DNA from: Methanobacteriota archaeon
GTDB taxonomy: Archaea > Thermoplasmatota > E2 > DHVEG-1
DNA: 64,000 nucleotides
Assembly (NCBI GenBank): GCA_963769885.1
Contig: CAVYNH010000005.1
Location: 119,144 to 183,143 of the forward strand
Direction: 5' to 3'
Shown here: positions 1 to 60,021 of the stretch, one piece after another
Layout of the letters: each line of letters starts with the position of its first letter
Position numbering within the stretch: position 1 is the stretch's first letter
Program-made: the position numbers and the translations under genes
Notes under the pieces: generated by a model
What the model saw: only the letters and a program-made list of their open reading frames with translations
What the model was told of the DNA's origin: nothing
The model's database searches: none

Positions 1-319
1 AGGGTCGGTGTGGGCGAGGAGGCAGAGGTTGGCGCGGCCTTGGAGGCCGACGCCGAAGAGGCGGTCGTCTCTGGTGTGGTCGCGGATGGCGCGCAGCTCG
101 CGGATGACCTGCTGTTGCTGGGCGTTGGTGCGGGTGGTGTAGATGAGGCGTTTCTTGTGGGCGAGGGCGTACTGGATGCAGGCGCTGAGGGTGCAGATGG
201 TTTTACCTGAGCCGGTGCCGGATTCGAAGATGAAAGGCTGCCGCTGGGTGAGGGACGCGGTGATGGCGTCCATGATGTCGCGCTGGTACGGGCGTAGGTT
301 CGTACGGGAAAAAATCCAT
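1..319 (-). CDS. xpd: XPD/Rad3-family Fe-S DNA helicase, 5' part (runs off the window; apparent +1 frameshift at ~295)
   Basis: Not in the ORF track. Manual translation gives MDFFPYEP/[extra base]/RPYQRDIMDAITASLTQRQPFIFESGTGSGKTICTLSAC...IYTTRTNAQQQQVIRELR...LQGRANLC, i.e. Q motif, Walker A, motif Ia and the first Fe-S Cys. Confidence 0.88.
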
Positions 320-416
320 CCTTGCAGGGGTGAATCCAGTGTGTATTCATGAAGGTTTGGAAAAAGTGTGCGGGGAGAGGGGGTTTTATAGGGGAGGATG
401 GGTTTGTCGGAGATGA

Positions 417-1256
417 ATGCGGAGGACGCCGTATGATGAGATTGTGGCCGTTCTTGCGCCGCGGCTGGGCGCACGCTGTGCGTTGTTGCCGCGGAAGTGG
501 GAGAAGGTCGGCGACGTCCTGATTATTCGGTTTCCTGCGGAGCTTTCGGGGGAATGTGAGACGATTTGCAGGTCGTATGCTGAGATCTTGGGTTGTGCAT
601 CGGTTTTGAATGACGTCGGCGGGATTTCTGGCCAGCATCGAGTTCCGCAAGTTCGCCATCTCTGGGGGCGGCATGAGACTGTGACCGTCCATCAGGAGAA
701 CGGGGTGCGGTACAAATTGGATCCAGCGGTGGTGATGTTTTCATCGGGGAACATGGCGGAACGAACCCGGATGGGACAGGTCGTCAAGTCTGGCGAGACG
801 ATTGTGGACTTGTTCGCTGGCATCGGGTACTTCACGCTGCCGATGGCGGTCTCGAGGAAGCCCGTGCGGGTGTACGCCTGCGAGATCAACCATGTTGCGT
901 TCGGGTTTTTGAATCAGAACATCGTCTTGAATCATGTCACCGAGGTGGTTGTGCCGTTACTGGGAGACAACCACGTAGTGGCGCCGAAGGGGGTCGCTGA
1001 CCGGGTCGTGCTTGGGTATCTGCAGGAGACCGCGCAATATTTCCCCACGGCCGTCGAGTGCCTGCGAGGCCATCAGGGGCTGGTGCACTACCATGAGGCG
1101 GTGCCGACGGAGCTGTGCCCGGATCGCCCACTTAAGGAGTTAGAGAAGAGTGCCAAGCGGTACAACAGACGTGTCCAGCTGCTCTCTTGGAAAGAGATCA
1201 AAACCTATGCCCCCGGGGTCTCGCATGTGGTCCTCGACGTGGAGGTGACGCGGTAG
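417..1256 (+). CDS. taw2: tRNA wyosine-derivative biosynthesis aminocarboxypropyltransferase (Taw2/TYW2, Met-10-like class I SAM protein)
   Basis: HQENG..Y.LD...MFS.GN..ER motif, DLFAGIGYF SAM-binding motif, ADRVVLG, IKTYAPG. Confidence 0.85.
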   Translation: MRRTPYDEIVAVLAPRLGARCALLPRKWEKVGDVLIIRFPAELSGECETICRSYAEILGCASVLNDVGGISGQHRVPQVRHLWGRHETVTVHQENGVRYKLDPAVVMFSSGNMAERTRMGQVVKSGETIVDLFAGIGYFTLPMAVSRKPVRVYACEINHVAFGFLNQNIVLNHVTEVVVPLLGDNHVVAPKGVADRVVLGYLQETAQYFPTAVECLRGHQGLVHYHEAVPTELCPDRPLKELEKSAKRYNRRVQLLSWKEIKTYAPGVSHVVLDVEVTR

Positions 1257-1777
1257 TGGCCGGCGTCCGGTTGGTCGTGGTGCACTGTGCGGAGGATGAC
1301 CCGCGGAAGTGCACGGCGCGGAAGATGCAGCGGTTCGGCCTGACGGCGCTGGTCCCCAGCGTCCGGCAGGTGCCCCATGAGGCAGTGCTGCTCAGCCCGT
1401 TTTCTAAGAAGAGCCTGTCGGCGGAGGATGCGGCGGCGGTACGGCGGTTCGGGCTGGTGGCGATCGACTGCTCCTGGAAGACCGCGGAAGAGTCGTTCGG
1501 CAAGTTGGAGGCGAGGAACCCATCGCGGGCGCTGCCGTTCCTGGTGGCGGCAAACCCGGTGAATTACGGGAAGCCGTTCCAGTTGACGACCCTGGAGGCT
1601 TTCGCCGCCGCGCTGTACATCATCGGAGACATCCCAGGGGCGGAGCGCCTCGTTTCGTTGTATAAGTGGGCGCCGCATTTCCTGGTTTTGAACCGGGAGC
1701 CGCTGGAGGCGTACCGGCGGGCTCGGACGAGCGCAGAGGTCGTCGCAGCGATGCAGGAGTTCCTTCCGGAGCAATGA
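1256..1777 (+). CDS. tsr3: rRNA aminocarboxypropyltransferase Tsr3 (DUF367)
   Basis: DDPRKCT, DCSW, RALPFLVAANPVNYGKP..L..LEA motifs. Start moved to the GTG overlapping the taw2 stop. Confidence 0.92.
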   Translation: MAGVRLVVVHCAEDDPRKCTARKMQRFGLTALVPSVRQVPHEAVLLSPFSKKSLSAEDAAAVRRFGLVAIDCSWKTAEESFGKLEARNPSRALPFLVAANPVNYGKPFQLTTLEAFAAALYIIGDIPGAERLVSLYKWAPHFLVLNREPLEAYRRARTSAEVVAAMQEFLPEQ

Positions 1778-1852
1778 GAGAAAGGCAGTCTACCCTTTTG
1801 CCCATTTTCCCAAGAGAACCTAAATACAGGGTAAAGCATGCCTTGTACTACA

Positions 1853-2050
1853 ATGGGCAAACTATTGGGAAAACCCAGACCATTAGACAGCAGAAACCGC
1901 GTGACACTCCCACCAGAGGTCCTCAGCCTGCTGAAGCTCAAGGCCAACGACGAGGTGTTCTTCCAGATCGAGAACGGGAAGATCACGATGGGTAAGGCCC
2001 TCGTCCGCTACGAGCTCATCGACGAGATACTCGCCGACAAGAAGAAATAA
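1853..2050 (+). CDS. AbrB/MazE/SpoVT-family DNA-binding protein
   Basis: LDSRNRVTLPPEVLSLLKLKANDEVFF swapped-hairpin signature. Confidence 0.8.
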   Translation: MGKLLGKPRPLDSRNRVTLPPEVLSLLKLKANDEVFFQIENGKITMGKALVRYELIDEILADKKK

Positions 2051-2054
2051 GTAC

Positions 2055-2285
2055 TCAGAGGCCCAGTTCACGGCTCATCTGCTGCATCCGCTCGTTCTTC
2101 ACGTACCATAGTACGGTCTTCGTCTGATCGATCACATCAGTCAGGCTCTTCCCTTCGTCCCGGCTCCGCTGCAGCATCACGATGCCGTACTCGAGATAGT
2201 TCTCCAGCACCGCCCGTCGGTGTCGTTCCAGCTTCGGGTCCACTTCCCGGATGTCCAGGATCCCGTAGGTCTCATTCGCTTGCAC
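2055..2285 (-). CDS. small hypothetical protein
   Basis: 76-aa ORF with coding-like composition; GGAGG upstream of the GTG start. Confidence 0.55.
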   Translation of the reverse strand: MQANETYGILDIREVDPKLERHRRAVLENYLEYGIVMLQRSRDEGKSLTDVIDQTKTVLWYVKNERMQQMSRELGL

Positions 2286-2482
2286 GGCTCATATCCCTCC
2301 AAGCCTGACTATCCCATCGAAAATAGATAAAACGGTACGCCCGGGTTTTCCAGCAAAACCACAAAAAAACCGCAAAACCCACTCGTTTGTCGACCTTCCC
2401 CGAGCAGGAAGTCCACCTACTTTACGCAAACGGGAGATAAAAAAAGAAAAAACAAAAAAGAGGGGAGAGGATAGAAGACCCT

Positions 2483-4792
2483 CTAGCGCAACCTAAGGAT
2501 GAACGGCCCGAGCAGGAACCCGCTCGCTGACTTGTAGGCGTCACCGATGTGCGCATTCACGGTCAGCGGGCCGAACCCGACGAGCAATCCGGTCGTCACC
2601 GTCGTCTCATTGCCAGGGCCAAGCGCGGGAATCATCCCGCTCATCCCCTTCATGATGAGCATGAGTGTGGCTTGTGGGTTCACGGTCCAGGTGATGTTGG
2701 TCAGATCAGCGTCAATCATGTTCTTGACCGTGATCTTGAGCTTTATGCCTCCTGTGAACGCCGTGATGTTAATCTTGGGCATATCGTTGATTGTAATCTG
2801 GAGCGGATCCGACCACGCGCTACTGGACCCATTGACATCCTTCGCCATGACCTTGACGTTATAGGTCCCGTACACCGGCCAGGCATGGGATGCGGACACT
2901 GTCTCGCCCGTGTCATAGGGTCCGATGAAGTCACTGGTGTTCCCATCGCCCCAGTCGAACTTCATGAGGATCTGCTGGCCCTCGGGGTCCGAGGGAACCG
3001 TGGCCGAATACGTGTAGGTGACGAACGTGACTCCTTCCGTCGGCCCGGTCGGGGCGTCCGGCGTGTTCGGCGGCAGGTTCGGGTTCGGCGTATCCCGCCA
3101 GACAACCGCGGAGGGGTCCCCGAGCAGGTTGTACTCCTCATAGTAGTATTTCGACATCCCACCGCCGCTGTAGTAGGTGTAGACCTCGTGCAAGCCGTAG
3201 TTGGTCATGCCGCAGATGAACTCGATGTTTTCCACAAACCAGCCCTTGTACATCCCTCGCTCCAAGATATCGTCCTCGTCCCAGTAAGAGTAGTCGGTCG
3301 CGCCCCAGAAGGCGAATCCACCCTTATGAGGGGCACGAGTCCAGGTCTCCCCGAAGCACTCCCCTACTGTGAACTGGTTGGTCAGGCAGGCGTGGCTGGC
3401 GACAAACGAATACATGCCGTCGTTCGTCAGGCTGTTGACGTTACTTTGGCTGAAGGCCGGCCCGCCCCATGACGTCTCAGACCCATGACCGGTGTAACAG
3501 ACGATCCCCCGGCCGGCATTCACCGACGCCAGGACCTGCGCGGTCCCTGCCCCATAGGTATGAGCATAGAGCTTATCAGAGGTGAACCCAGCAGGGTCGA
3601 GATAGGTGGAAATAACGAAATTCTGCGTCCCCTCAGCTAGACTCCAATAGGTTCCATCATCCGAAGCCGTCATCGCCGCCTTCTTAATCCAATCAGTCGA
3701 CGGGAAGTCGCCCGTCTCGTAGTACACCGTCTTGTCGACTATCGTGGTCACCTGCGCTTCCGTCGACGCCGAGAATCGGCCGATGAAGACATCAGGGAAA
3801 TAATCAGACCCAACCAATGTCGTATAATAGAGATCCGTGCACGTCCCGGTTTCCGTACCGGTATAGGTGGGAATCTGCGGCGAATCCCCGACCAGCAGAA
3901 CATAGGTGGGGGGTACCGGCCAGGTGGTATACGCCGTATTGATGTACGCCTTGATGTTCTCCTTTGTGACCCCGCCTGGGATCTGCGACGTCTTCGTCAC
4001 CGTCACGCCATAACCCTGGGTGGTCTTCAAGTCGGCGAACGGCTGGATCTCCTCCACGAACGAGTCGTAGACGATGATGAGGTACCCCTCAGTCTGCCGG
4101 GCCGGAACGCCCTGTTCAAGGGTCCCATAGTTGTCAAAGAAGTTCTGATCAAAGGTATCGAAGGATGGCGAGCAGTACCGCGTAAGGACCGCCCGGGTTT
4201 GGTCCATATCGCTGCCCGGCAGATTGACCGAAATCGAGCAACTGGTCAACAGCCGCACCTCACCGGTCACCGGGTTGTACTGGACCGGGGTGACCTCCAC
4301 CATCACGGCCCGGTGCCCGCGGACTTCGCCGATGACCTGCGCCGAGGCGATGGCCGAGGGTTGGAAACCGTCAGCCGCATACGCCGCCGGGTTCATGGTA
4401 AACTCCGCCGTGGCCCCCGGCAGCTTCACCACTGACGACTGGACCGGGACGACAAGGACTGGGACGCCCTCGGCGGCAAGCGATGTCTGCGTCCAGACCG
4501 CATCCGTAACCGTCACGACCGGCTGCGCCCCAATCGGAATCTCAAAAATGTAGGTAATCATCGGTAGCTTGGGGTCACCGCGCACCACCGTATACCCCGT
4601 CGCCGTGGACGCCTCGATCGTGGCGAACGCCCCCTCCGAGAGCTGTACGCTGCCGAAGGTATACACAGGCTGGTCCACCGTGATGCGGATGCTTGGCTCT
4701 GATACAGGTCGTGCGACCACCGCGGTCGTGCCCGTCAGCAGCAGTATCAGGATGCAGCAAACGAGCTTAGAAAATCCAGATTCACTACTCAT
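2483..4792 (-). CDS. secreted C25 (gingipain-like) cysteine peptidase with propeptide, PKD domain and C-terminal beta domain
   Basis: Signal peptide; propeptide region; YVLLVGD, DLYY, IGRF; catalytic His in YTGHGS and Cys in SHACLT; YNLLGDP; PKD motif FDWGDG. Confidence 0.9.
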   Translation of the reverse strand: MSSESGFSKLVCCILILLLTGTTAVVARPVSEPSIRITVDQPVYTFGSVQLSEGAFATIEASTATGYTVVRGDPKLPMITYIFEIPIGAQPVVTVTDAVWTQTSLAAEGVPVLVVPVQSSVVKLPGATAEFTMNPAAYAADGFQPSAIASAQVIGEVRGHRAVMVEVTPVQYNPVTGEVRLLTSCSISVNLPGSDMDQTRAVLTRYCSPSFDTFDQNFFDNYGTLEQGVPARQTEGYLIIVYDSFVEEIQPFADLKTTQGYGVTVTKTSQIPGGVTKENIKAYINTAYTTWPVPPTYVLLVGDSPQIPTYTGTETGTCTDLYYTTLVGSDYFPDVFIGRFSASTEAQVTTIVDKTVYYETGDFPSTDWIKKAAMTASDDGTYWSLAEGTQNFVISTYLDPAGFTSDKLYAHTYGAGTAQVLASVNAGRGIVCYTGHGSETSWGGPAFSQSNVNSLTNDGMYSFVASHACLTNQFTVGECFGETWTRAPHKGGFAFWGATDYSYWDEDDILERGMYKGWFVENIEFICGMTNYGLHEVYTYYSGGGMSKYYYEEYNLLGDPSAVVWRDTPNPNLPPNTPDAPTGPTEGVTFVTYTYSATVPSDPEGQQILMKFDWGDGNTSDFIGPYDTGETVSASHAWPVYGTYNVKVMAKDVNGSSSAWSDPLQITINDMPKINITAFTGGIKLKITVKNMIDADLTNITWTVNPQATLMLIMKGMSGMIPALGPGNETTVTTGLLVGFGPLTVNAHIGDAYKSASGFLLGPFILRLR

Positions 4793-5246
4793 TAATATCA
4801 ACCCTAGGTATTATAATATAAAGGAGAGCTTTTTATACATATCGCCCTGCCTGACGTAGGCATGGCACAGGGAAAGGCACCGTTCCGACCTTATCCACCT
4901 TAAAAGGAGAGGAAAAACCCTAGAATCCCTTCGGCGACGCCATCCCCAGCGCCACCCTGAAGCCCGCCGGCGGACGCACCAACGCCTCTTTTACGAGCCG
5001 CGTCAGCACCCGGCTCTCAACGACCGGGCCATCAACCCACAAATATCGAAGATGAAGCCGAACCACCGTGATCCCTACTAAGAAACTCATTGTCAAGCCC
5101 ACACACCCGTACACCGATAAACACCCCCCCGGGAGCTGAAAAAAGCGTAACGCACGAACGATTCCAACACAATCCAACACCCCCTTCACTCACTAGATTT
5201 AAGTAACGGAAAACGAATGCATGCCCCCTACCCGGGGACAACGCCC

Positions 5247-6650
5247 ATGACCCAAGACCTCACCACCTTCTTCCAGCCACGCAGCATCGCCGTCGTCGGC
5301 GCCTCCAAAAACCCCACCAAAATCGGCCACGCCTCCCTCAAAAACATTCTCATCTCCGACTACGCCTGCAAACTCTACCCCGTCAACCCCAACGAAAACG
5401 AAATCCTCGGCATGAAATGCTACAAAACTGTCCTCGACATCCCAGGCACCATCGACCTCGTCATCATCGCCGTCCCCGCCCCCATCGTTCCCCGCATCCT
5501 CAAAGACTGCGTGAAAAAAAAGGTCGCCTGGGTCATCATCATCTCCTCAGGATTCAGCGAAATCGGCAACCACCAAGAAGAAGACGAACTCAAACAGATC
5601 ATCGCCGGCAGCACCACCCGTATCCTCGGCCCCAACACCATGGGCTATAAAAACGCCTCCGCCGGCATCGACGCCTCCTTCGTCTTCGGCATGCCCCGCA
5701 AAGGCAACCTCGGCCTCATCAGCCAGAGCGGTGCCCTCGGCATGGGCATGATCTACCTCGCCAACAACGAATACGTCGGCCTCTCCAAAATCATCGGCGT
5801 CGGCAACAAAATCGACATCGACGACGACAACCTCATCACCTACATGGCCCACGACCCCGAAACCGAGGTCATCGGCCTCTACATCGAAGGCATCAAGCAC
5901 GGCAGAGACTTCATGGCTAGCATCAAGGCCTGCGACAAACCCGTCCTCGTCGTCAAAGCCGGCAGGGGCAAGGCCGGCGCCCGCGCCACCGCCTCACACA
6001 CCGGTTCCATGGCCGGCAGTGACGAAATCTACAGCGCAGCCATCACCCAAGCCGGCGGCATCCGCTGCCGCGACCTCGTCGAGCTCTTCGACATGGCACG
6101 AGCGCTCGCAGGCCAGCCACCCGCCCGCGGGAACCGCATCGGGATCATCACCAACGGCGGCGGACTCGGAATCCTCCTAACCGACGCCTGCGAAGCAAAC
6201 GGCCTGGTCGTCCCCCCGCTCTCAAAGCAAACCTACGATCGGATGCGCAAGATTCTACCTTCACTAGTCACCCCGAACAACCCAATCGACCTCGTCGCCG
6301 ATGCAGGGTTCTACCGCTATTGGTCGTCCTCGCTTGCGTTGCTGCAAGACCCGAACATCGACGGGATTATCGTCGCGTCCGTTCACGCCGGGTACGCCAG
6401 ACCCAGGGAATACACGGGCGCGATCCAGAAGATGATCTTCCAGCAGAAGCTGCATCATGAATATCAAAAACCAATCCTGGGCTGTTGGGTTGGCGGCCGG
6501 GAGTTTGAGGACCTCGTCCAGGACCTCAAGGCGGTCGGCGTCCCGATCTATCCATCCTCCTGGCGGGCAGCACGGGCGATGTACGCGCTGGTGAAAGAAG
6601 GCGAGCGGAAAGCGAGAAAGAGCCGGCCGAAGAAAAAGAAACCCTGCTAA
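5247..6650 (+). CDS. acdA: acetate/acyl-CoA ligase (ADP-forming), alpha subunit
   Basis: PRSIAVVGAS, YPVNP, LGPN, ISQSGA, phospho-His in ASHTGS, TNGGG, NPIDL. Confidence 0.88.
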   Translation: MTQDLTTFFQPRSIAVVGASKNPTKIGHASLKNILISDYACKLYPVNPNENEILGMKCYKTVLDIPGTIDLVIIAVPAPIVPRILKDCVKKKVAWVIIISSGFSEIGNHQEEDELKQIIAGSTTRILGPNTMGYKNASAGIDASFVFGMPRKGNLGLISQSGALGMGMIYLANNEYVGLSKIIGVGNKIDIDDDNLITYMAHDPETEVIGLYIEGIKHGRDFMASIKACDKPVLVVKAGRGKAGARATASHTGSMAGSDEIYSAAITQAGGIRCRDLVELFDMARALAGQPPARGNRIGIITNGGGLGILLTDACEANGLVVPPLSKQTYDRMRKILPSLVTPNNPIDLVADAGFYRYWSSSLALLQDPNIDGIIVASVHAGYARPREYTGAIQKMIFQQKLHHEYQKPILGCWVGGREFEDLVQDLKAVGVPIYPSSWRAARAMYALVKEGERKARKSRPKKKKPC

Positions 6651-6958
6651 TCCACCCAGTCGACCCCGAGAATCGACTTCCAGTCAGTTTTTTTGTTCTT
6701 CCATCGCTCGACGGTTTCCTTGGAGAGGCAGTTCTGGCAGAGTCCAATGATGGTGAAGTAACAGGAGGGGCAGGTGGGTTTGCCGCATTTGATGCAGATG
6801 GCGGTAGCCTCGTTGGTGTCACAGACATGACATTTGCCGGTTGGCGGCTGGTTTTTGAGGACGGTGTTAATCTTGGCAGCGATCTTCCCTTGGTCTTTCT
6901 TGGAGATCCACTGCTTAAGGGCATCGTTCATCGTCGCGGTATCTGTCTCCTTCGTCAC
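6647..6958 (-). CDS. small zinc-finger protein with four CxxC pairs
   Basis: CHVC...CIKC...CPSC...CQNC. Confidence 0.75.
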   Translation of the reverse strand: MTKETDTATMNDALKQWISKKDQGKIAAKINTVLKNQPPTGKCHVCDTNEATAICIKCGKPTCPSCYFTIIGLCQNCLSKETVERWKNKKTDWKSILGVDWVD

Positions 6959-7010
6959 CAGGTATCGCCTGTTCCTTCCGTGCGTATAGTGAAAATCTTG
7001 GTTGGTTTGA

Positions 7011-7607
7011 TTAATGTTGTGTCGGCTGCCGGTGCGCCCTTCTCCAGAGGAGGTTTGCGGAGATGTGGATGAAGGGGGTGAGGACGATGAGAATGAGAAG
7101 GTGCCAGATGGTCAGGGTGTCGAGGAACCAGTTGACAGCGGTAGCGCCTGAGAGTTGGAGGATCGTGCTTGCGAGGAGGCTGAAGAGGAGTGCGCCGAGG
7201 AGGAAGTCAAATTGGTCGAAGGGGATCCAGTCGGCACCGCGGGCGATGTTGCAGCGGCGTTTGAAGAAGCTTTCGATGATGTCTCCGAGGAGGGCGCCGA
7301 AGCAGAGGGAGAACAGGATGGGGATCATGAGGGGGAATCCCTCGAAGTTGGTGAGGCTGAGGAAGGCGTAATCGCTGGTGTGGAGGTAGGTGGCGGCGAC
7401 GGCGCAGCCGAAGCCGGCAATCATGCCCAGGAGCGTGCCGACGATGAGACCGTTCCAGGTTTTTCCGTCGCCGAGGATGCGTCGACCGTCGTGCCAGGTG
7501 CGGCCGGCGTCGATAGGTCGTCCGCCGCCGACGAGGACGGCGGTGGCGTTGGCGGTGTAGACGGGGATGATGATCCAAAAGGCTTGGGCCAGGACGGTGG
7601 GGTCCAT
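7011..7607 (-). CDS. carS: CDP-archaeol synthase
   Basis: PVYTAN, PID.G...DGRRILGDGKTWNG, GD...SFFKRR, DQFDF. Confidence 0.92.
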   Translation of the reverse strand: MDPTVLAQAFWIIIPVYTANATAVLVGGGRPIDAGRTWHDGRRILGDGKTWNGLIVGTLLGMIAGFGCAVAATYLHTSDYAFLSLTNFEGFPLMIPILFSLCFGALLGDIIESFFKRRCNIARGADWIPFDQFDFLLGALLFSLLASTILQLSGATAVNWFLDTLTIWHLLILIVLTPFIHISANLLWRRAHRQPTQH

Positions 7608-7631
7608 GGCTTGTGCGAATCCCCTAGTGTT

Positions 7632-8159
7632 TTAAAAGGCCTTTGCCGCGGCGGTGAGGGGGGTGCGGGTGATTTTAAGGCCGGTGTATTGGAAGCGGCT
7701 TGAGCGTTTGACGAGGGCTTTGAGAGCGGTGTTGGAGATATGGAAGTTCTCGGAGACCTTGTTGGCGAAGGTGCCACTATCTCCGATGAAGTCGTAGATC
7801 TTCTCTTCGAGGTTTTCGAAGGATTGGTCGTCAAGGGAGGAGATGTTGAAAATCTCGCTGATCTCATTGACGGGGCAGGAGATGTTGATGTTGAAGAGGG
7901 AGTAGAAGGAGCGGTACATTTTTTGGGGTTTGCCGTTGACGCCTTCTTCCGGGGTGGTCCATTTGGTTTCGGCGAGCTTCATTTTTTCGAAGAATTCCAA
8001 GGCGTCGTGTCCCTCGTCGCCGAAGCGGGTGAGGATCATGCTGGAGGGGATCCAGTCCTTGGAGATTTCCATGAAGACCTCTTTTTTGACTGGAGAGTCG
8101 AAGGCGCGAATGATAGTTACGAGGTCGGTGGAATCGTTAATCACCTTGGTGCGAATCAT
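7632..8159 (-). CDS. archaeal ArsR-like winged-helix transcriptional regulator
   Basis: RTKVIND..DLV, L.FFEKMKL.ETKW..P...KPQK.Y pattern of a conserved euryarchaeal family (recognised from memory). Confidence 0.7.
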   Translation of the reverse strand: MIRTKVINDSTDLVTIIRAFDSPVKKEVFMEISKDWIPSSMILTRFGDEGHDALEFFEKMKLAETKWTTPEEGVNGKPQKMYRSFYSLFNINISCPVNEISEIFNISSLDDQSFENLEEKIYDFIGDSGTFANKVSENFHISNTALKALVKRSSRFQYTGLKITRTPLTAAAKAF

Positions 8160-9763: not shown

Positions 9764-9774
9764 GGTAATCCACT

Positions 9775-51274: not shown

Positions 51275-51298
51275 AAGTCGGCTTTCCACAAGATTACC

Positions 51299-51968
51299 TT
51301 AAGGTTGTAGGTCGAGAATCGAGTCTATGAGGCTACTTGGAGTCGTAAAATCAATAAGGCCAGGGGTCCCGTATTCGCTGTAAATACTCCCGGAGACTTC
51401 AACGCGACTACCAAGGCCGCTTGTGAAACATTTGGAGGTATTTACCAGGAGGACGGCGAGGTCCTGACCATTGAGGATTGGGGTCTGCTGTAGGCACGAC
51501 CCATCCGTATCACGGATGACCATAAGCCCGAAGGTCGTAGCATTCAGTTGACTTGCATTCAGCGTCCCAAATAAGCCGTTGGAGGAGCTTCCACTGTAGC
51601 AGGCATTATCATATTTAAGAAGGACTTTTGAGGACGTGTCAGAAAGGGCGATGACCACCGTTGATAAATCAACGGGTTCAGAGGCCGTCGTGGTCTGCAG
51701 GAATATAGCTAATTGCGTTATTTTTGTTCCATTGGAAAACCCGCTGATATGGGTTACCTTTATCCCTGAGGATACCTCGCGGAGCGTTTCCTGACCGGTT
51801 TTCAACGCCTGCTGTTGAAGGGTGTTCATGGTCTGCATGAGAACAGAGGCGGCGATTCCGGCGGCGAGAATTAGGGCAATAAAAATTATGAGAGATCCGA
51901 CTCCCATCTCAGCGGATGAATAGCTTCTTTGGCTTCTTCGAATGATGGTAAACAGTTTTTACCCCCAT
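51299..51968 (-). CDS. flaB: archaellin (leader start uncertain: CTG at 51955, or ATG at 51968 with a +1 frameshift)
   Basis: RRSQRSYSSA|[24 protein letters not shown]; IRDTDGS; FTTP. Confidence 0.82.
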
Positions 51969-52057
51969 CCCGGTGAAGGATAACTAGTAAACCCCTCCAC
52001 ACCCATGGGATGAATCCTGTATGGGGATAAAAAAGTAATGGCTGAACGAAGTGAAGG

Positions 52058-52099
52058 AGGAATAAAAAGAAAAAAGAGGTGTGTGGCCAGATACCACAC
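52058..52099 (-). terminator. hairpin plus T tract after the archaellin triplet
   Basis: GTGTGG...CCACAC followed on the minus strand by CTCTTTTTTCTTTTT. Confidence 0.45.
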
Positions 52100-52113
52100 G
52101 GTATTTTACAGGC

Positions 52114-52797
52114 TTAGTAGAGATCGAATATTGTTCCGGCCAGCGAAGACGGAGTCCTGATGGCGAAAATCCCTGGAGCTCCTTGTTCTGGGATAATCAT
52201 TCCCCAGATATCTTCTGAGGGACCCCATCCACCAAAGGATTTACCTGGGCATATGGTGATAAGGACGTGGTCTCCTCTGTTGATGACCGGACTGGCCGTA
52301 GAGTCGGCTGATCCATCTACATCCTTTAAGACCATGACTCCAAACGAGGTCGCGCCTTGACCAAAGGCTGATACTGAGTCGTCAAAGATACCTGCGCCCC
52401 CGATACCGGTGTAGTTGAAGAAAAAGGAGCTGTTATACTTCATCACGATCTTAGTGACAGAATCACTGACTTCAACGGTTGTTTTACTCAAATCGATATC
52501 CTTTGAGCCTGCTCTCGGTGAGACAGAAATGGTTACGTTGAGTATCTTATCAGTGATTGCTCCGCCGCCATAATCGTACGTTCCTTTCGCAGCACAAATA
52601 TCGTCAACGCCTATTCCCGTGGCGACTTCATTAGTAGTCTCTGCGCCTGTCGCCATAGCCTGATTCTCTAATTTGTTTGCGGTTTGTACCAAGACCGAGG
52701 CTGCAATCCCAGCAACAAGGACCATGGCAATGAACACAATCATTGCCCCGATTCCCATGTCCCCTGCCTTGCTCCTTACAAATCTCATGTGTCTCAT
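52114..52797 (-). CDS. flaB: archaellin
   Basis: KAG|[33 protein letters not shown]. Confidence 0.93.
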
Positions 52798-52813
52798 TTT
52801 TCATCCTCCTCAG
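52672..52813. repeat. 142-bp exact direct repeat, copy A (archaellin RBS and 5' end)
   Basis: Identical to 53353-53494 by manual alignment. Confidence 0.9.
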
Positions 52814-53478
52814 TACAAATCATAGACAGTATCCGAAAGCGAGGAAGGAACCCGGAATGCAAAAATCCCTGGTGCTCCGATTTCCGGAATGACTTGTCCC
52901 ATGATGTCGTCACGAGGGTCAAGACCTGTGGTAAAGCATGCACTGGTGCTAATCTTCAGCATGACGATATCTCCTGTGTTGATGACGGGCGAAGATGCAG
53001 AACTCATCGAGCTATCGGCATCATTCAGAACAATGATACCAAACTCGTCGTTGGTGAGCGTCCAATTTCCAGTTCCAAAGACACTCCCAGTAGTATCATC
53101 GACTGCAGTGCTGTAATCGTCCGTGTCAGTTGCATCGTAGTGGAGGAGCACCTTCGTGTCGCCGTCGGTTAATTCGATGATCGTTTGATTTAGGTCAATG
53201 GCTCCTGATCCCGATCTGGTTTTTATTGTAATAGTCAGGTTAACAATCGTATGTGAGGTGGTGTTTGTCTTTCCTCCAATATCAAACACGCCAAGGCCTG
53301 ATGCGACTTCTTTTGTCGTCTGTTGCCCTGTTATCATTGCTCGAATCTCTAGTTTGTTTGCGGTTTGTACCAAGACCGAGGCTGCAATCCCAGCAACAAG
53401 GACCATGGCAATGAACACAATCATTGCCCCGATTCCCATGTCCCCTGCCTTGCTCCTTACAAATCTCATGTGTCTCAT
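52810..53478 (-). CDS. flaB: archaellin
   Basis: Same N-terminus as 52114-52797; GGAGG RBS. Confidence 0.93.
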   Translation of the reverse strand: MRHMRFVRSKAGDMGIGAMIVFIAMVLVAGIAASVLVQTANKLEIRAMITGQQTTKEVASGLGVFDIGGKTNTTSHTIVNLTITIKTRSGSGAIDLNQTIIELTDGDTKVLLHYDATDTDDYSTAVDDTTGSVFGTGNWTLTNDEFGIIVLNDADSSMSSASSPVINTGDIVMLKISTSACFTTGLDPRDDIMGQVIPEIGAPGIFAFRVPSSLSDTVYDLY

Positions 53479-53494
53479 TTTTCATCCTCCTCAG
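53353..53494. repeat. 142-bp exact direct repeat, copy B
   Basis: Identical to 52672-52813. Confidence 0.9.
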
Positions 53495-54160
53495 GTACAA
53501 ACCAAAAACCGTGCCTCCAGCAAAGGAAGCCGGCGTGGTAAAGGCAAAAGCACCAGCTGAGCCTTCTTCCGGTTGGACAAGCCCCCACACATCTACCCGA
53601 ACATCGAGCCCGGCTCCGAAGCATTGGGTTGCATCGAACGTCAAAGCAACCTTATCCCCAAGGTTTGCAACAGGCGTTGTGTTCGTCACCGATCCATCGG
53701 CGTCCTCCAGGACCATGACCCCAAAATCTTTGGCGCCTAGTGTGTAGGCAGTGCCGGCAGGGTTGAACATATCTCCGCCGACTTGGCTTCTCGTTGTATA
53801 ACCCCCGGCGTAGGTTAAGACGCATTTCTGCACTGAGTTCGAAATCTCTATGTAGGCGTTCGACAGATCAATGTCCCCAGCGCCTGCTCGGGGTTCCACG
53901 GTAATGTAGCCGAGGTCAAGTGTGGTTCCGCTCTTATGCCCAGCGATACTGGAGACTTTTAACCCTGTGGCTACCTGGTTAATGGTCTGATCTCCCGTCG
54001 TCATCGCTTGTATTTCCAGCTTGTTGGCCGTCTGTACGAGGACGGACGCAGCGATACCGGCGACAAGGACCATGGCGATGAACACAATCATGGCGCCAAT
54101 TCCCATGTCAGCGATATCGCTTTTTTTCAGAAGTTGCTTTATTTTTCCCATCTGGCACAC
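53491..54160 (-). CDS. flaB: archaellin (natural stop put out of frame by one extra base at 53494/53495)
   Basis: KKSDIA|[13 protein letters not shown]; ends ...GLY-c-TGA where the neighbouring paralog has DLY-TGA in the same context. Confidence 0.88.
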
Positions 54161-54458: not shown

Positions 54459-57248
54459 TTAGGAGGCGTGGTGCCCCGGAGAATGTTCGATGATCCACTC
54501 AAGCAGCTGCCAGAGCCATGAGGCGCCGTGGGCCGGCTGATTCACCGGAAGGGCGACATGCACGAAGATGGTGTCCTCGTACATATTCCCGGCCACATCG
54601 TACACCTGCGCCAAGATATACTTGAACTGCAGCGCCGTGAAGTCCCGGTTGCAATACCATTTATAGTTGCCAGACCCAGGCGGGTCATCAGAGGTCACGG
54701 TAACGGGGTTTGCATACGGCATCCCAACGTCGAAGACCATACAATCGATCCCTGACCCGTTGTCGGTCGCGGTCACCTGCACCCAGAACCCGCCATGTTT
54801 GGGGATAGTGGCACCATCGGACGGCATCCAGATGGAGCAATACGGCTGGATCTTATCGATAGAGATCTTGACTGGGCCTTGCGGGCTTTCGACGTTCCCG
54901 GCGTAATCCACAGACCAGAACCGGATATTCCAACTCCCAAACAAGGTGTTCGGATCCCCCGTCGCATCCTGTGGCAACCGAATCCCAGAAGCGGCGTCGT
55001 ACTCCTTTATCGCTCCCTGGTCGATACGGAAGTAGGTGTGATTTACTCCAGAGCCGTATTGGCCGTCCGTCGCACTCAGCGTTACCCGCACGTTGCTGAT
55101 GTACCACCCGTGTTGGCCGAGGGTGCCGGAGATGTCGTCGACGATGGTCTCCGGCGGGTCGTCATCGCTGCCGACGTACACGATGGACCAGGAATCAAGG
55201 AGGGGTGTATAGGATGGGTTCGCACGGCTCAACGTCGCCTGGGCGCGGATACCTGGATGGAGGACCGGGTCAATGCCGGAGAGATCCTCCCCGTTGCTTG
55301 CTCCTGCAATGAGCGTGCTTCCGTTCTCGGAAAGGATATTAAAGCTCAGGCTGCCTGAGTAGTCCACATTGAACTCATGCCAAGAGACGAGGTTGAACGG
55401 CGCCAGCGTCTTCGACGTGACTTGGGCGGTGAGAACCTCTTGTTTCTCCGGCCCGATGACTGCCGTCACATCGGAGCTCCCCGGGATGTTCAACTGCCAG
55501 ATGTTGCCGAAGACATCAGGCATATCGTTCCACGGGTAGGGGTAGTCGATTCGTATATCCTCCCAGGCGATGAAAACGTGGCCGTCGCCGACCGTCATCT
55601 CCGCCCAGTCCGCAACCGAGGAGTTGCTAGCCGACATCTGGATATCATAGGGAAACACGGTGCCGTTGAAGGTGACCATCTTCCCCCAGATATCCCCGCT
55701 GCTGTCGAAGCTGACGAGAAACGTCGAGGGAAGGTACGGGGTGATGTCGGTCCGGATGAAGTTCCCTGGCTTGAGGATGAAATTGTTCTTGATGATGTTT
55801 CCGGAGGTGTCAATGACCCTCGCCCAGATATTTCCGTACCAATCACCATCGCTGATGTCCCCGTCGTTCCAGGCGACCAGGAATCGCTGCATGAGCTCAC
55901 AGTAGCCGACCGCAGGGAAATTATAGTCAGTCTCCGACAATCCTGTCGCAAAAGTCATCGTCGTCCCGACGGGGTCCAGGTTCTGGTTGAAGAACCCGCC
56001 CTTGATGCTGAAGGGACCCGTGTCTGCGGTGAGGCCTTCCTCATAGACAATTAGGTACTGCTGATGCTGTGGGTCGTAGGCGGCCCAGGGTTCGCATTGA
56101 TTGTTCGCCGCGCTACTAATCGTCTTCTCCGAGCCAATAGGGTTCCCTGCGGTGTCATACAGGCGGCCGTAGACATTGTAGTTGGTGACGCCGTTACGGC
56201 CATCCTCCCAGAGGACGCAGAAGCGATGATTCACAGAATCGTAGGTGACGAAGGCGTCGGCCTGGCAGCTGGCCGCGCTGCACACGGTCTGGACCGTGCC
56301 GAGGATGAAGTTGCCGCCCTGTCGCGAGATCGTCCGGGCTTTGATATCTTCAGTGGCCGCGCTGGGATTCGCGGTGGTGTCATAGTGCTCCCAGGCGACG
56401 AAATAGGTATTGTCCCCAAAGGCGGCAGAGGGGTTCTCGTTTCGGTAGTAGAGGGTATTGTCGTTGAAGATGCAGGTATCGAGCATGATAGGGGCGCCGT
56501 CAAGGCCGTAGAGTGAGCCGCGGATTTCCTGTTTGAACCCAAAGGTGTGAGGTGAGAAATAGGCCTGGCCCTCTTCCCAGAGGACGAGGAATTCGCCAAT
56601 GCCATATTCAACCTCGGGGTCCCAGGCGCCCTCGCTGTTGGTATGGTAGGTGACTCGTTCATCGTTTGGCCAGTTGTTGTGCCAGGTGGTGAATACGCTG
56701 TAGTAGTCGCTTTGGCTTTGGGCCGCGGGGTTCCCGTAGAAGAGGTAGAGCATGCTGTTCCCTGTGGGGATGGTGGGGATTCGGATCCAGACACTGGCGG
56801 AGGCGTTGTTGTAAGCCTCGACCCAGTAGTCAAGCCAGGTAGTTGTGAAGTCCTGATATTTGAAGCGGATGTCGCCATAGTCTGCCCGCATTGCCGACTC
56901 TTTTGCGATAGTCAGGTGGACGGCATAGCTGGTAAGGGGTGCGCCTACGGTGTTTGTCAGGGTGATGGGCTTAAGGCGGGTCCATGCGGGGTCGGTCCAG
57001 ACGGCGTAGGTGTTTTTGATGCCGACGGTCCCGTCTTTAACCTCATAATCATGAGAGAGAGCGGGGTCGATGTGTTCTTCGGTGTCGAATTGGTCTTCCC
57101 AGGTGAAGTACGGATCAACGAGCGGGCGTGGAGCGTAGGATGGGGGTGATGAGGTCTTCTCTAGGGCCTGCGTTGGGATGACCGCGAGCAGCATCCCAAG
57201 CAGGATGAACGCGACTAGCTTTTGGGCGAGTAATGAAGTGTTTTTCAT
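54459..57248 (-). CDS. large secreted protein: DUF2341-like domain, beta-repeat region and Ig-like domains
   Basis: Signal peptide MKNTSLL...; DYGDIRF...DYWVE...VWIRIP...YGNP; repeated P...Y....FLV.W[ED]; GWYISNV.V.L.ATD. Confidence 0.78.
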   Translation of the reverse strand: MKNTSLLAQKLVAFILLGMLLAVIPTQALEKTSSPPSYAPRPLVDPYFTWEDQFDTEEHIDPALSHDYEVKDGTVGIKNTYAVWTDPAWTRLKPITLTNTVGAPLTSYAVHLTIAKESAMRADYGDIRFKYQDFTTTWLDYWVEAYNNASASVWIRIPTIPTGNSMLYLFYGNPAAQSQSDYYSVFTTWHNNWPNDERVTYHTNSEGAWDPEVEYGIGEFLVLWEEGQAYFSPHTFGFKQEIRGSLYGLDGAPIMLDTCIFNDNTLYYRNENPSAAFGDNTYFVAWEHYDTTANPSAATEDIKARTISRQGGNFILGTVQTVCSAASCQADAFVTYDSVNHRFCVLWEDGRNGVTNYNVYGRLYDTAGNPIGSEKTISSAANNQCEPWAAYDPQHQQYLIVYEEGLTADTGPFSIKGGFFNQNLDPVGTTMTFATGLSETDYNFPAVGYCELMQRFLVAWNDGDISDGDWYGNIWARVIDTSGNIIKNNFILKPGNFIRTDITPYLPSTFLVSFDSSGDIWGKMVTFNGTVFPYDIQMSASNSSVADWAEMTVGDGHVFIAWEDIRIDYPYPWNDMPDVFGNIWQLNIPGSSDVTAVIGPEKQEVLTAQVTSKTLAPFNLVSWHEFNVDYSGSLSFNILSENGSTLIAGASNGEDLSGIDPVLHPGIRAQATLSRANPSYTPLLDSWSIVYVGSDDDPPETIVDDISGTLGQHGWYISNVRVTLSATDGQYGSGVNHTYFRIDQGAIKEYDAASGIRLPQDATGDPNTLFGSWNIRFWSVDYAGNVESPQGPVKISIDKIQPYCSIWMPSDGATIPKHGGFWVQVTATDNGSGIDCMVFDVGMPYANPVTVTSDDPPGSGNYKWYCNRDFTALQFKYILAQVYDVAGNMYEDTIFVHVALPVNQPAHGASWLWQLLEWIIEHSPGHHAS

Positions 57249-57261
57249 ACTTCCTCCTGGC

Positions 57262-60021
57262 TCACAGGCCGTCCTCCACATGGTAATGCCATGTGCCGGC
57301 TAAGAGCAAGTTAAAATCGAGGTTGCCGGTGACGCTGAACACCGGCCAGATGTACAAGTGGAGGTTCTGCCAGTACCATTCCACGCAGACGTAGAGGGCG
57401 ACGCCGGAAAGGGTCACGTTCGCGCCCCATTGATCGCCGTAGGTGAAGTAGAGGTTGATGGCCTGGAGGTTGGGGTGGCTGCAGTTCTGGTTAATCCTGA
57501 AGTAGGAGGGGTCGGTGTAGGAGCCTTGGTCCCACCGCCAGCTCATGTCGAAGTGCAGGGTGCTGGCGAGGGTGAGGCCGCCGTGGAAGTCGATGTCCTG
57601 GATGGCGTCGTCGAGGTTGAAACCGAGGTGGATCGGATGGGTCTGGGTGAAGTCGAGGTTAACGGAGCCGGTGTCCCCGAGGGACCAGTTCCCGGTGAAG
57701 TCAAGTTGGTCGCCGTTGTATTCTAAGGCGACGTGGAAGTCGTCAAAGGCATTGAGATGACCGGAAAGATCCAGGGTCTGTATCTGGGGCTGCGGTCCGG
57801 TGACGTTCAGAACCCAGTCGGCGGCAAAATCCGTGGCGGAGACGGTTCCGGCCTCAATCATGAGTGCCTTGCCTGTTGCTAGGTTCTTAATCTCGAACCG
57901 GTCATCGAGCATGTCGTTGGTTGTATCAAGGGAGAAAAACCCGTCCGTGGCGATCAGTCCTTGGACGTCGATCGCGCCGTTGCCGATGCGCAGCTCGTCG
58001 CTGATGCTAAGGTTGTCGAAGGTGAGGCTAAGCTTGATGGGGTCCGGGTTGCCGGCTGAGGATCGCTCGGCATAGAGGTGTCCCTGGGGCTGGTTCCACC
58101 AGAACTGTCCGCTGCCGTAGGCATTTGACGGGACGTCATCGACCGTCAGCATCGGTTCCTCGACACCGGGGAGGTACATCGCTGCCTCGCCGAAGTTGGA
58201 GCTGGCGGTGCGGTCCGCGAAGGCGGAGAGGTAGTTGTCCGGGTTCACCCAGAAGTTGTCAGGGTCGGGATCGACGTAGAGGGTCCCGGACACCTGGATC
58301 TGGCCTGATCCCGCGAGGCTGCCGGCAGGGATGGAGACGAAGGGCATATCAGGGTCGGAGCCAGGGTCCGGTTTCGGGTAGTACATGGTGACAGCGCCTA
58401 AGGAACTGCTCATGCTATGGCCGACGAAGCCGTCGACCGTAAGGATGAGCATGGAGCTGTTGGTAATGAGCAGGGATGCCCCGGCGTCGATGCGCCGGGA
58501 GCTGGGGATAGCATTGATCGTCAGCCAGGCCACGTCCGGGGTTTGCGTGTCGTTCTTCGGGTAGTAGACCGCGATCTGGTCGAGGTTGTCGTCCATCTGC
58601 GTGTTGATGAACCCGAGGGTTTCCACCTCAAATAATTTGCCTTGGGCAACATGGAAGCTGGCATTGAGCGCCCAGGTGAGGTCCGCCTGGGTGGGGATGC
58701 CGTTCAGCTGAAGTTTTTCTTTGAACCATGGCGAGCTGAGGATCATGCCGACGTTGAACTTGGTGCTGGCCCGATAGGAGAAGCTACCGTCGAACGGGCT
58801 AAGGTCCCCGCGGCGATTGAGGTCGAAGCTCATCCATTTCCCGGGTCCGACGAGGCTGAGGGGGACGCTAGCGAGGCTGAGGGTGAAGGTGAACGTGGCG
58901 TTCTCCTGTTCCGCGGTGGTTCCGCCGGCGAGGAGGTTAGAGTAGAACGTGATGTTCGTCGGCTCGTCGGAGGCGGTATGGTAGTAGAAGAAGGTCTTGC
59001 CGGAGAGCGGCGTCAGCTGGGTGACGACGTTGCAGGCGGGGTCGAAGTTCACCGCGAACTCCACATTGTAGGCGGGGTCGGTCTGGCCTGCTTTGTAGGA
59101 CTGGAAGCCGAACAGGAAGTCGTTGCTGGCGGTCCCGATGATGTCGTTGGAGTCCATCTCATGCTGGAAGATGGCGGGATGGAAGAGGTTCTCTTTGCTG
59201 ACTGCGAACGTCTTTTCGATGTGGACCGGGATTTTCTCTCCAGCAGGGGACCGGTACCCGACACGGAGGACGATGTAGTCTTGGGAGGCTTGCCCCGGCT
59301 CCAGGGTAACGGGTTGGGCGAGGGAATCCTCGATCTTCTCCAGGAGGGGTAAGCTGGGGTGGTTCAGCCGCTCTTGCAGGCGCAGGAGGATATTCGTCAG
59401 GATTGCTTTAAGGAGTGTGAAGGGGCCTAGTGAGGTGATCAGGTGAAGGTTGACGTGGAACTCTTGCCAGACCTCGAGCTCCGTCGTCTGGTTCGCAAGC
59501 CCGTTGTTAATCTGTCTGAAGTCGAAGCTCGTGGCCCAGGCCTTGTGGTTGACAGTGCCGGAGTCGGTGATCTCGTCAATGCCGTAGCGATAGAATCCGA
59601 AGCCGGTTTCGACGTCATCAGCTGGGTCGTCGTCCAGGTTGAACCGGATGGGGGTGCGGTAGTTCGGGTCCCCGAGTTTTCCCAGAATCATCCAGCGCTT
59701 GATGTCGATTTTCTGGGAGACCTCTTTACCGTTATAGCGAATCGTGACCCACAGGCCGAAAATCTCGTTGCCGCCGAGCAGTGGGTCTGAGAAGAGATGC
59801 CGGCTGGACTGGTATTGTGCCGGCGTATACCGAGAGACGTCCATGGTCAGGTATTTGTTGACCAAGGCGGAGACCGACTGCATCGAGTCGGTCGGGTATT
59901 GTGCCTGAGCGGCTTGAGTTAACGAGGCTTTGGGCTCGTGGCCCGTGACAACCCCAGATAATGTCATGCTTACACATAGCAGCCCTGTGAAGAGGGTTTG
60001 CACGCCTCTGCTCATCTTCAT
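57262..60021 (-). CDS. large secreted beta-rich hypothetical protein
   Basis: 919-aa ORF with signal peptide and GAGGTG RBS; no family recognised. Confidence 0.75.
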   Translation of the reverse strand: MKMSRGVQTLFTGLLCVSMTLSGVVTGHEPKASLTQAAQAQYPTDSMQSVSALVNKYLTMDVSRYTPAQYQSSRHLFSDPLLGGNEIFGLWVTIRYNGKEVSQKIDIKRWMILGKLGDPNYRTPIRFNLDDDPADDVETGFGFYRYGIDEITDSGTVNHKAWATSFDFRQINNGLANQTTELEVWQEFHVNLHLITSLGPFTLLKAILTNILLRLQERLNHPSLPLLEKIEDSLAQPVTLEPGQASQDYIVLRVGYRSPAGEKIPVHIEKTFAVSKENLFHPAIFQHEMDSNDIIGTASNDFLFGFQSYKAGQTDPAYNVEFAVNFDPACNVVTQLTPLSGKTFFYYHTASDEPTNITFYSNLLAGGTTAEQENATFTFTLSLASVPLSLVGPGKWMSFDLNRRGDLSPFDGSFSYRASTKFNVGMILSSPWFKEKLQLNGIPTQADLTWALNASFHVAQGKLFEVETLGFINTQMDDNLDQIAVYYPKNDTQTPDVAWLTINAIPSSRRIDAGASLLITNSSMLILTVDGFVGHSMSSSLGAVTMYYPKPDPGSDPDMPFVSIPAGSLAGSGQIQVSGTLYVDPDPDNFWVNPDNYLSAFADRTASSNFGEAAMYLPGVEEPMLTVDDVPSNAYGSGQFWWNQPQGHLYAERSSAGNPDPIKLSLTFDNLSISDELRIGNGAIDVQGLIATDGFFSLDTTNDMLDDRFEIKNLATGKALMIEAGTVSATDFAADWVLNVTGPQPQIQTLDLSGHLNAFDDFHVALEYNGDQLDFTGNWSLGDTGSVNLDFTQTHPIHLGFNLDDAIQDIDFHGGLTLASTLHFDMSWRWDQGSYTDPSYFRINQNCSHPNLQAINLYFTYGDQWGANVTLSGVALYVCVEWYWQNLHLYIWPVFSVTGNLDFNLLLAGTWHYHVEDGL

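Follow-up and report, generated by a model that had tools for sequence, protein, structure and literature searches.

Kilobase-scale strand polarity in a sediment archaeon of the Thermoplasmata shows a lineage-specific, strand-asymmetric mutation pressure

The DNA analysed here is a stretch of 64,000 nucleotides (G000:C5:119144-183143, hereafter the window) from the 2.09 Mb, 7-contig assembly (G000) of an uncultured sediment archaeon belonging to the Thermoplasmata. It shows a lineage-specific and very strong strand-asymmetric mutation pressure. On one strand, which we call K, the excess of A>G and C>T transitions over their reverses is about 5-7 times that on the complementary strand, M. Silent sites have consequently drifted towards C (81%) and A on M and towards G and T on K, with amino-acid usage and non-coding DNA following. 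M is usually the sense strand. The polarity is set at the starts of transcription units, most sharply at divergent promoter spacers, holds a plateau over 3-6 kb and fades over the last ~2 kb of the unit; often it runs past gene ends into opposite or downstream genes, which are thereby reversed. Our preferred explanation, to which we give slightly less than an even chance, is that the pressure follows the direction in which RNA polymerase travels, beginning at transcription-unit starts and spilling into neighbouring genes.

Results

The alternating polarity is mutational

The GC skew of 1-kb segments has a standard deviation of 0.221 in the window, as against 0.043 in shuffled sequence, and of 0.24 genome-wide. 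Across the genome GC skew and AT skew are anticorrelated (r=-0.78), and the contrast is therefore one of C+A against G+T; strand polarity alternates in blocks of ~5 kb, one strand being C/A-rich and the other G/T-rich. An initial annotation of this DNA, made by eye, had listed 13 such tracts, and all of them have the sign it gave: GC skew is +0.19 to +0.52 in the G-rich tracts and -0.21 to -0.39 in the C/A-rich ones, where AT skew is +0.16 to +0.47.

Fourfold-degenerate sites amplify the effect, with a skew at these sites (GC4 skew) of -0.98 at 5-6 kb and +0.95 at 38-39 kb. To describe codon composition, all genes were cut into 300-nt chunks and sorted by their sense-strand skew at third codon positions (GC3 skew). 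Strongly C-rich chunks had a fourfold-site composition of A.09, C.81, G.06 and T.04, with C at 93% of two-fold pyrimidine sites and G at 28% of two-fold purine sites. Strongly G-rich chunks had G.78, T.12, C.08 and A.03, with 23% C and 95% G at the corresponding two-fold sites. The compositions of the two polarities are thus exact complements. Amino-acid usage moves with polarity, from Thr, His, Asn and Ile to Val, Arg, Glu and Gly, and non-coding DNA (A.32, C.30, G.16, T.22) shares this polarity, with an amplitude reduced to about one half (r=0.76, slope 0.46). The GC content at third positions (GC3) is ~0.8, compared with ~0.46 in intergenic DNA.

Because the skew does not vanish at fourfold sites but is strongest there, it is mutational and not a matter of codon choice. 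Together with its presence in non-coding DNA, its mirror symmetry and the shift in amino-acid usage, this bears out the initial proposal of a strand-asymmetric mutational process. A rate model with symmetric transversions, in which T>C is raised 7.4-fold and G>A 4.6-fold on one strand, reproduces the fourfold composition of neutral and strong chunks and comes close for intermediate ones; its factors were taken from two-fold sites and the fit is nearly saturated, so that it speaks to sufficiency only. To that extent a single asymmetry is enough, with A>G and C>T favoured 5-7 times on the G/T-rich strand. No skew was found at the scale of replichores: 25-kb means of GC3 skew lie within about ±0.3 and simply vary with net gene orientation (r -0.57 to -0.83), no sign or trend extending over a replichore.

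Polarity, gene direction and switch points

Genes on both strands of the window were fixed by Pfam scans and RNA genes by Rfam; gene calling used a skew-stratified codon model with interval scheduling, and imperfect calls are left at the SpoU start, the Big_7 gene and a few more. Statements about single reversed genes concern Pfam-verified genes only, while genome-wide percentages cover every called gene. We call polarity usual where the sense strand is C-rich and reversed where it is G-rich.

Among the 48 window genes of at least 100 aa, 31 have a C-rich sense strand, 11 are weakly skewed and six are reversed (Taw2, Tsr3-like, EMC3-like, CMK, Cbf5 and DUF2085), to which the last 2 kb of a giant PAS-domain gene can be added. 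Genome-wide, sense-strand GC3 skew is below -0.3 in 51% of genes and above +0.3 in 12%. Gene strand accounts for GC3 skew with an R2 of 0.40 in the window; for 1-kb GC3 skew on gene orientation across the genome the value is 0.36 (0.40 for native windows), and smoothing the orientation over 0.5-4 kb never raised it above 0.36. The skew had initially been described as independent of gene direction. As a rule this fails, since strand explains 35-40% of the variance, but it holds for a real minority of reversed genes, including the two singled out at the time: Taw2 (+) and DUF2085 (-) are both Pfam-verified and both carry the "wrong" polarity. Equally, strand and position in the transcription unit do not explain the skew in full (R2 0.35-0.40).

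Sense-strand skew is already about -0.4 to -0.5 at +75 nt from the start codon and stays there. Units longer than 3 kb show a plateau near -0.5 from the unit start and a rise to between -0.17 and +0.11 in the last 500 bp. This rise toward zero is confined to the last ~2 kb, whatever the length of the unit or the direction of its downstream neighbour, and in some genes, among them the giant gene and Cbf5, it goes as far as full reversal. In co-directional runs of at least 12 kb, sampling windows that lie 5 kb or more past the run start and 3 kb or more before its end have a mean sense-strand GC3 skew of -0.29, with 55% of them below -0.3 and 10% above +0.3. Such C-richness does not fit symmetric two-way initiation from dispersed origins, which should give an average close to zero. 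In DNA upstream of co-directional promoters, skew averages -0.13 to -0.18.

Switches were detected in 600-bp windows from third-position plus non-coding skew, with a hysteresis of ±0.3. The 2.09 Mb contain 184 G-to-C switches, at a median spacing of 9.2 kb, and 182 C-to-G switches. A divergent junction lies within 500 bp of 57% of the G-to-C switches (random 15%) and a convergent junction within 500 bp of 42% of the C-to-G switches (random 16%). As predictors of C-to-G position, convergent junctions have a median error of 648 bp, compared with 1300 bp for the midpoint between G-to-C switches. Transitions have a median width of 950 bp for G-to-C and 1050 bp for C-to-G, with widths of 400 bp or less in 9% versus 3%, and 1-kb jumps beyond 0.6 occur at 29 versus 11 sampled positions. 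The saw-tooth originally perceived, with abrupt G-to-C steps and gradual C-to-G drifts inside genes, is therefore evident at three sharp G-to-C switches of the window (8257, 14357 and 39457; 400-500 bp) but weak genome-wide. G-to-C changes at 1.9-5.2, 21.8 and 28.9 kb are gradual; C-to-G switches are indeed intragenic in 65% of cases genome-wide, although the one at 6507 is sharp. No motif emerged at switch points: in a comparison of 86 sharp G-to-C spacers with 785 other promoter spacers, no 6-8-mer enrichment survived multiple testing (best p=4e-4, 1215 tests). Within divergent spacers the skew is weak (±0.1-0.2), the sample (n=22) being too small to separate one switch point from two transcription starts. 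We also considered tRNA genes as special switch sites and rejected them, their downstream side having no consistent skew.

Polarity domains of the window

The domains, switches and genes of the window are as follows (Pfam E-values in brackets where given).

1-1800, plus-strand G/T-rich domain, GC4 skew +0.35 to +0.87
within 1-1800, minus strand, 5' end of a gene ending at 273, usual polarity
417-1256, plus strand, Taw2 (TRM5-TYW2, 1.7e-53), reversed, GC3 skew +0.29
1187-1777, plus strand, Tsr3-like gene (Ribo_biogen_C, 3.2e-42), reversed, GC3 skew +0.36
1857-5200, weak-skew zone with a gradual G-to-C switch, width 3500 bp
2483-4801, minus strand, C25 peptidase gene (Peptidase_C25, 1e-69), GC3 skew +0.02
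5217-6650, plus strand, C/A-rich domain with CoA-ligase gene, GC4 skew -0.98
about 6507, sharp C-to-G switch at a convergent junction, width 550 bp
6650-8250, plus-strand G-rich domain over minus-strand genes, usual polarity, GC4 skew +0.84
7011-7607, minus strand, CarS (Pfam)
7632-8159, minus strand, ArsR-like gene (Pfam)
8160-8570, divergent spacer with a sharp G-to-C switch (8257), width 450 bp, 1-kb jump D=-0.67
8340-8411, minus strand, tRNA gene (Rfam) in the same spacer as the 8257 switch
8571-14160, plus strand, co-directional run of methyltransferase (MTase), L15, SecY, Adk, EMC3-like, CMK and Cbf5 genes (Pfam)
14316-14401, plus strand, tRNA-Ser gene (Rfam) at a sharp G-to-C switch (14357) between co-directional genes
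15629-21050, plus-strand G-rich domain over minus-strand CitMHS transporter and four ABC-transporter genes (Pfam), usual polarity, GC4 skew +0.66 to +0.83
22900-26650, C/A-rich domain over plus-strand genes, GC4 skew -0.76 to -0.95
23522-24115, minus strand, DUF2085 gene (7.4e-28), embedded in that domain and reversed, plus-strand GC4 skew -0.62 to -0.87, reversed in G001 too
24403-25821, plus strand, ProRS, in the same C/A-rich domain
26657, C-to-G switch inside the SpoU gene (switch scan)
26950-28450, plus-strand G-rich domain over M50 peptidase and other minus-strand genes, followed by a gradual G-to-C change at 28.5-31.4 kb
31455-38432, plus strand, giant PAS-domain gene, 2325 aa, PAS at aa 1545-1640 and 2105-2213
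38442-39053, minus strand, archaellin-like gene (Arch_flagellin, 2.4e-9), GC3 skew -0.92, the strongest usual polarity in the window
39054-39330, divergent spacer ahead of the archaellum cluster with a sharp G-to-C switch (about 39310-39457), D=-0.65, width 400 bp
39279-54160, archaellum gene cluster, GC3 0.5-0.6, weak skew following gene strand
54459-60021, minus strand, two large genes downstream of the rRNA operon, moderate usual polarity, GC4 skew +0.26 to +0.59
60299-60418, 5S gene (Rfam), flanking the 23S gene
60458-63656, 23S rRNA gene (Rfam), in a 23S/5S/tRNA unit at 60.3-63.9 kb
61469-61682, minus strand, group I intron in the 23S rRNA gene (Rfam RF00028, 77 bits)
63812-63883, tRNA gene (Rfam), flanking the 23S gene

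The giant PAS-domain gene carries both polarities. Its first 5 kb are C/A-rich (GC3 skew about -0.7) and encode Thr/Gln/His-rich protein, the sign of the skew flips at ~36457, and the last 1.3 kb are G-rich (+0.57), encode Glu/Val/Arg-rich protein and hold the second PAS domain. Two 60-mers counted by eye within it contain exactly the 8 G/24 C and 34 G/7 C first reported, and the accompanying change of protein composition was confirmed, from L/T/Q/A/H-rich to E/L/V/A/K/R-rich. The G-rich (plus-strand) domain of the archaellin-like gene extends ~2 kb into the 3' end of this convergent gene. Both PAS domains lie in the C-terminal third of the protein, and the N-terminal part has coiled-coil-like matches (Crescentin rod, ATG16), no further family being matched. 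The gene also contains degenerate repeats every 462 nt (33227, 33689, 34151).

In the MTase-Cbf5 run, sense GC3 skew drifts from -0.68 to +0.31, crossing zero at ~11457 inside the run, and the polarity is the same in the sister species G001. The L15-SecY-Adk-EMC3-like-CMK-Cbf5 genes (9356-14160) sit behind the methyltransferase gene, and the spc ribosomal operon is thus split, L30 closing the cluster on contig C4 (G000:C4:271868-284091); the same L15-to-Cbf5 block is present in the relative G002. Next to it, the tRNA-Ser gene, a HEAT-repeat protein, CitMHS, the four ABC-transporter genes and an Ig-domain gene (GC 0.41) form a block (14316-22200) that in G000 and G001 separates Cbf5 from the conserved gene that follows. 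No match to its genes was found between Cbf5 and the next shared gene in G002 and G015, and judged by gene order the block may represent either an insertion in the genus or a loss elsewhere.

Between 39.2 and 60 kb the R2 of skew on gene strand reaches 0.69. The archaellum cluster contains at least seven archaellin-family genes on both strands (counting 38442-39053), as well as FlaC, FlaD/E, a KaiC-like gene, two FlaI-like T2SSE ATPases and FlaJ; its low GC3 and weak skew look as if it were younger in the genome than its surroundings. In the 23S/5S/tRNA unit no 16S gene was found before the contig end.

Since T is scarce on one strand and A on the other, long spurious open reading frames lie antisense to real genes on both strands throughout the window; examples are 7740-8459 (+) over the ArsR-like gene and 32853-33962 (-) within the giant gene. 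Greedy longest-frame gene calling fails on this DNA, and miscalled ArsR.

Relatives and repair gene content

The nearest public relatives, among them SG8-52-3 and SM1-50, are metagenome-assembled genomes (MAGs) of Thermoplasmata and Thermoplasmatales recovered from sediments. Most members of the family have an AT-rich genome (GC 0.28-0.40) in which GC skew and AT skew rise and fall together, the pattern of ordinary purine loading. The strong keto/amino regime is confined to three genomes, namely G000, its congener G001 (AlinenSediments bin-5223, an independently assembled MAG from another site) and a third MAG, Prado234; G014, G015 and a handful of other genomes show a weaker form of it. The window is fully syntenic with G001 over 11.9-30.3 kb, where polarity agrees gene by gene, including the reversed Cbf5 block and DUF2085, and across the ribosomal cluster the two genomes correlate at r=0.86 over 30 genes. 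The switch positions, initially supposed to be fixed, are accordingly conserved between two species of the genus, but boundaries differ between genera of the same gene order. G015 keeps C-rich polarity over L4-L2, and around ProRS its C-rich polarity runs through two minus-strand genes after SpoU; the AT-rich G008 has flat skew at the compared loci. The process is thus a derived one that is stable in the genus, and gene order by itself does not dictate it.

Polarising the substitutions between G000 and G001 gave no usable spectrum, fourfold sites being nearly saturated (57% identity versus about 47% expected); in the pair matrix G000 has fewer G on the C-rich strand. Loss of a repair gene was rejected as the cause, since EndoV, UDG and Ogt are present in G000, G001 and unskewed kin alike. 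PolB was rejected too: its Pfam match looked weaker in G000 and G001, but the motifs are the same in G000, G001, G008 and G015. The PolB-like gene concerned (G000:C3:58752-61211; L135:1753-4212 +) has 'DIR' and 'IDSLW' in all four genomes aligned, at what we take to be exonuclease motif I and the 'DTD' of motif C, respectively, and on these residues it resembles a PolB paralogue that has lost its activity. One 430-aa open frame (G000:C4:163426-164301, minus strand) contains both an Endonuclease V and an O6-alkylguanine transferase (DNA_binding_1) domain, a pairing also present in G001, G008, G014 and G015; a bifunctional protein of this type is reportedly known from Ferroplasma.

Discussion

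The results presented above suggest, tentatively, a model in which the pressure is tied to the direction of RNA polymerase through an asymmetry of damage or repair between template and non-template strands. Within a family that is AT-rich elsewhere, the process would have arisen in this genus and, with less strength, in a few genera related to it, raising GC3 from about 0.2 to 0.8. It might be viewed as the archaeal equivalent, in extreme form, of what fungal genes show as 5' C-skew and 3' G-skew, its strength resembling that of mitochondria.

Several observations weigh against this model. The sign of the skew is opposite to that expected from classical deamination of an exposed non-template strand. 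About 12% of genes are reversed, and 9 of 10 strongly reversed genes tested are Pfam-verified, including RtcB (7.5e-177), PcrB (1.5e-53), L14, L24, L30 and S2. Along the co-directional and presumably highly expressed ribosomal cluster, sense GC3 skew swings from -0.79 to +0.26, -0.69 and +0.73; in the S10-spc part (C4:271868-288218, one strand) L3 has -0.79, L14 +0.26, L24 +0.24, L6 -0.67, L19e -0.69, L30 +0.41 and S2 +0.35. EF1A, EF2 and the thermosome have only moderate skew, so amplitude does not track expected expression. C-to-G switches are shifted from the convergent junction toward the midpoint between G-to-C switches (slope 0.42; 72-81% of cases), and flanks of the same polarity are found at 52 divergent versus 21 convergent junctions. 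The strand running toward the start of tRNA genes is G-rich for ~2.5 kb upstream (mean +0.28), even where the genes there are co-directional. The spacer upstream of cdc6/orc1 (C6:261631-262032) carries a G-to-C switch (left +0.72, right -0.25) with a reversed gene on its right. Finally, the shift over L4-L2 goes the other way in G014 at an identical gene order, and neither G014 nor G015 has the SpoU/M50 boundary in the same place.

Many of these points would be met by a DNA transaction that proceeds outward, 5'->3' on both sides, over 2-6 kb from about 180 promoter-proximal sites, with gene direction correlating only because the sites lie at divergent promoters. We regard this chief competing explanation as possible but doubtful. 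It could take the form of replication initiation, either dispersed or dependent on recombination, with a leading strand rich in A and C like that of yeast (PMC3459929), or of recurrent breaks with 5'->3' resection that leaves a single-stranded 3' tail open to C>U and A>hypoxanthine deamination. Resection would give the observed sign by ordinary single-strand deamination, and the two deamination-type transitions are indeed raised by similar factors. An outward transaction accounts for reversed genes that follow their neighbourhood and not their own strand, for the drift of C-to-G switches to the midpoint, for the switch beside cdc6/orc1 and for the G-rich strand upstream of tRNA genes, and it handles the wave within ribosomal operons and the differing boundaries between genera better than transcription does. 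It copes worse with the interiors of long co-directional runs, which stay C-rich (55% versus 10%), and it is also opposed by the negative mean skew upstream of co-directional promoters (-0.13 to -0.18), by the better performance of convergent junctions over midpoints (648 versus 1300 bp), by the lack of a motif at switches, by nearly unskewed divergent spacers (n=22) and by the absence of replichore-scale skew from the cdc6 origin. The stronger notion that about 180 promoter-proximal sites are routine points of opening, copying or resection of the chromosome, through origin-independent or recombination-dependent replication or through repeated breakage and resection, with the skew domains as a fossil record of the tracts, we consider rather unlikely. 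Dispersed replication initiation or a translocating repair activity, as first put forward for this DNA, is possible but unproven.

Two further explanations have been largely excluded. Selection, whether as a translational preference for C-ending codons or for unstructured C/A-rich mRNA, would be in keeping with the C-rich third positions of most genes, with a GC3 (about 0.8) far above intergenic GC (about 0.46) and with the third-position skew of Haloferax, which also opposes gene-strand bias (PMC12999951). However, verified genes and gene halves use the mirror set of G- and T-ending codons, non-coding DNA has the same polarity, the greatest skew is not found in ribosomal proteins, elongation factors or the thermosome, and polarity flips within single genes. 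Selection as the sole cause is already contradicted by these facts, and we hold it to be very improbable. Even less credible is an artefact, in the form of MAG mis-assembly or patches of foreign DNA. The low-GC3, weak-skew blocks at 21-22.5 kb and 39-54 kb might suggest it, but switches occur within intact Pfam-supported reading frames, an independent sister MAG from another site agrees gene by gene, and gene order is conserved across the family.

The pressure is strong enough to take GC3 from about 0.2 to 0.8 and to recompose proteins along single genes. Relatives of the same gene order lack the skew, have it weakly or have it with other boundaries, and this contrast makes the family a natural experiment for finding the responsible enzyme or process. 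The family might also serve to show whether the footprints left by transcription, repair or replication restart in archaea are like those of eukaryotes such as fungi and yeast. In practical terms, the skew is harmful to gene calling in these MAGs (long antisense frames), to composition-based binning, to the detection of transferred DNA and to phylogeny.

Comparison with known systems

In vertebrate mitochondria the H strand is G/T-rich owing to C>T and A>G changes while single-stranded. Here, likewise, one partner of a base pair has almost vanished from one strand at fourfold sites, the two deamination-type transitions are elevated together on a single strand, and protein composition changes with them. 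Whereas the mitochondrion has one polarity and one replication mode, about 370 polarity changes occur per chromosome here. The polarity also differs from bacterial-type replication skew, in that it is not constant over a replichore and the change at the cdc6/orc1 upstream spacer is G-to-C, not C-to-G. Unlike translational codon bias, it gives reversed genes mirror codon sets, and ribosomal proteins range from -0.79 to +0.41. Unlike in GRINS (repeats of intense nucleotide skew), the skewed tracts are unique genes and not repeated copies; the only repeats found in 40 kb were one short tandem array and the weak 462-nt-spaced repeats inside the giant gene.

Fungal genes have 5' C-skew and 3' G-skew, read as tied to the phases of transcription (PMC3315797). 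The present skew is similar in that the sense strand is C-biased from the unit start and moves toward G at the 3' end, and in that fourfold sites, amino-acid usage and flanking non-coding DNA are all affected. In contrast, with a GC4 skew of up to 0.98 it would appear to be much the stronger of the two; it spans multi-gene units of 3-10 kb in an archaeon; and its 3' end averages about zero, yet ~12% of genes are fully reversed and waves occur inside ribosomal operons. The replication-associated skew of budding yeast, with an A/C-rich leading strand (Marsolier-Kergoat 2012, PMC3459929), and human N-domains resemble it in that the A/C-rich strand runs 5'->3' from each of many jumps per chromosome, and a single cdc6-adjacent spacer carries such a jump here. 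However, our domains measure about 9 kb, the skew is extreme, and its sign stays with gene direction deep in co-directional runs. As to an abrupt jump with a roughly linear return between initiation sites, median transition widths are similar in the two directions (950 and 1050 bp), narrow ones being commoner at G-to-C switches (9% versus 3%), and the unit profile is a plateau with a late rise and not a straight line.

In Haloferax, third-position and non-coding GC skew is opposite to gene-strand bias, and the cumulative curve of that skew has a local maximum at an origin (Paravel et al. 2026, PMC12999951). The sign relative to gene strand is the same here, but the 5-7-fold transition asymmetry and the reversed genes go beyond gene-strand bias alone. 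In the literature we found no description of kilobase polarity domains this strong in archaea, which a recent survey describes as largely without strong one-strand mutation pressure. The genus described here is a clear counter-example to that view.

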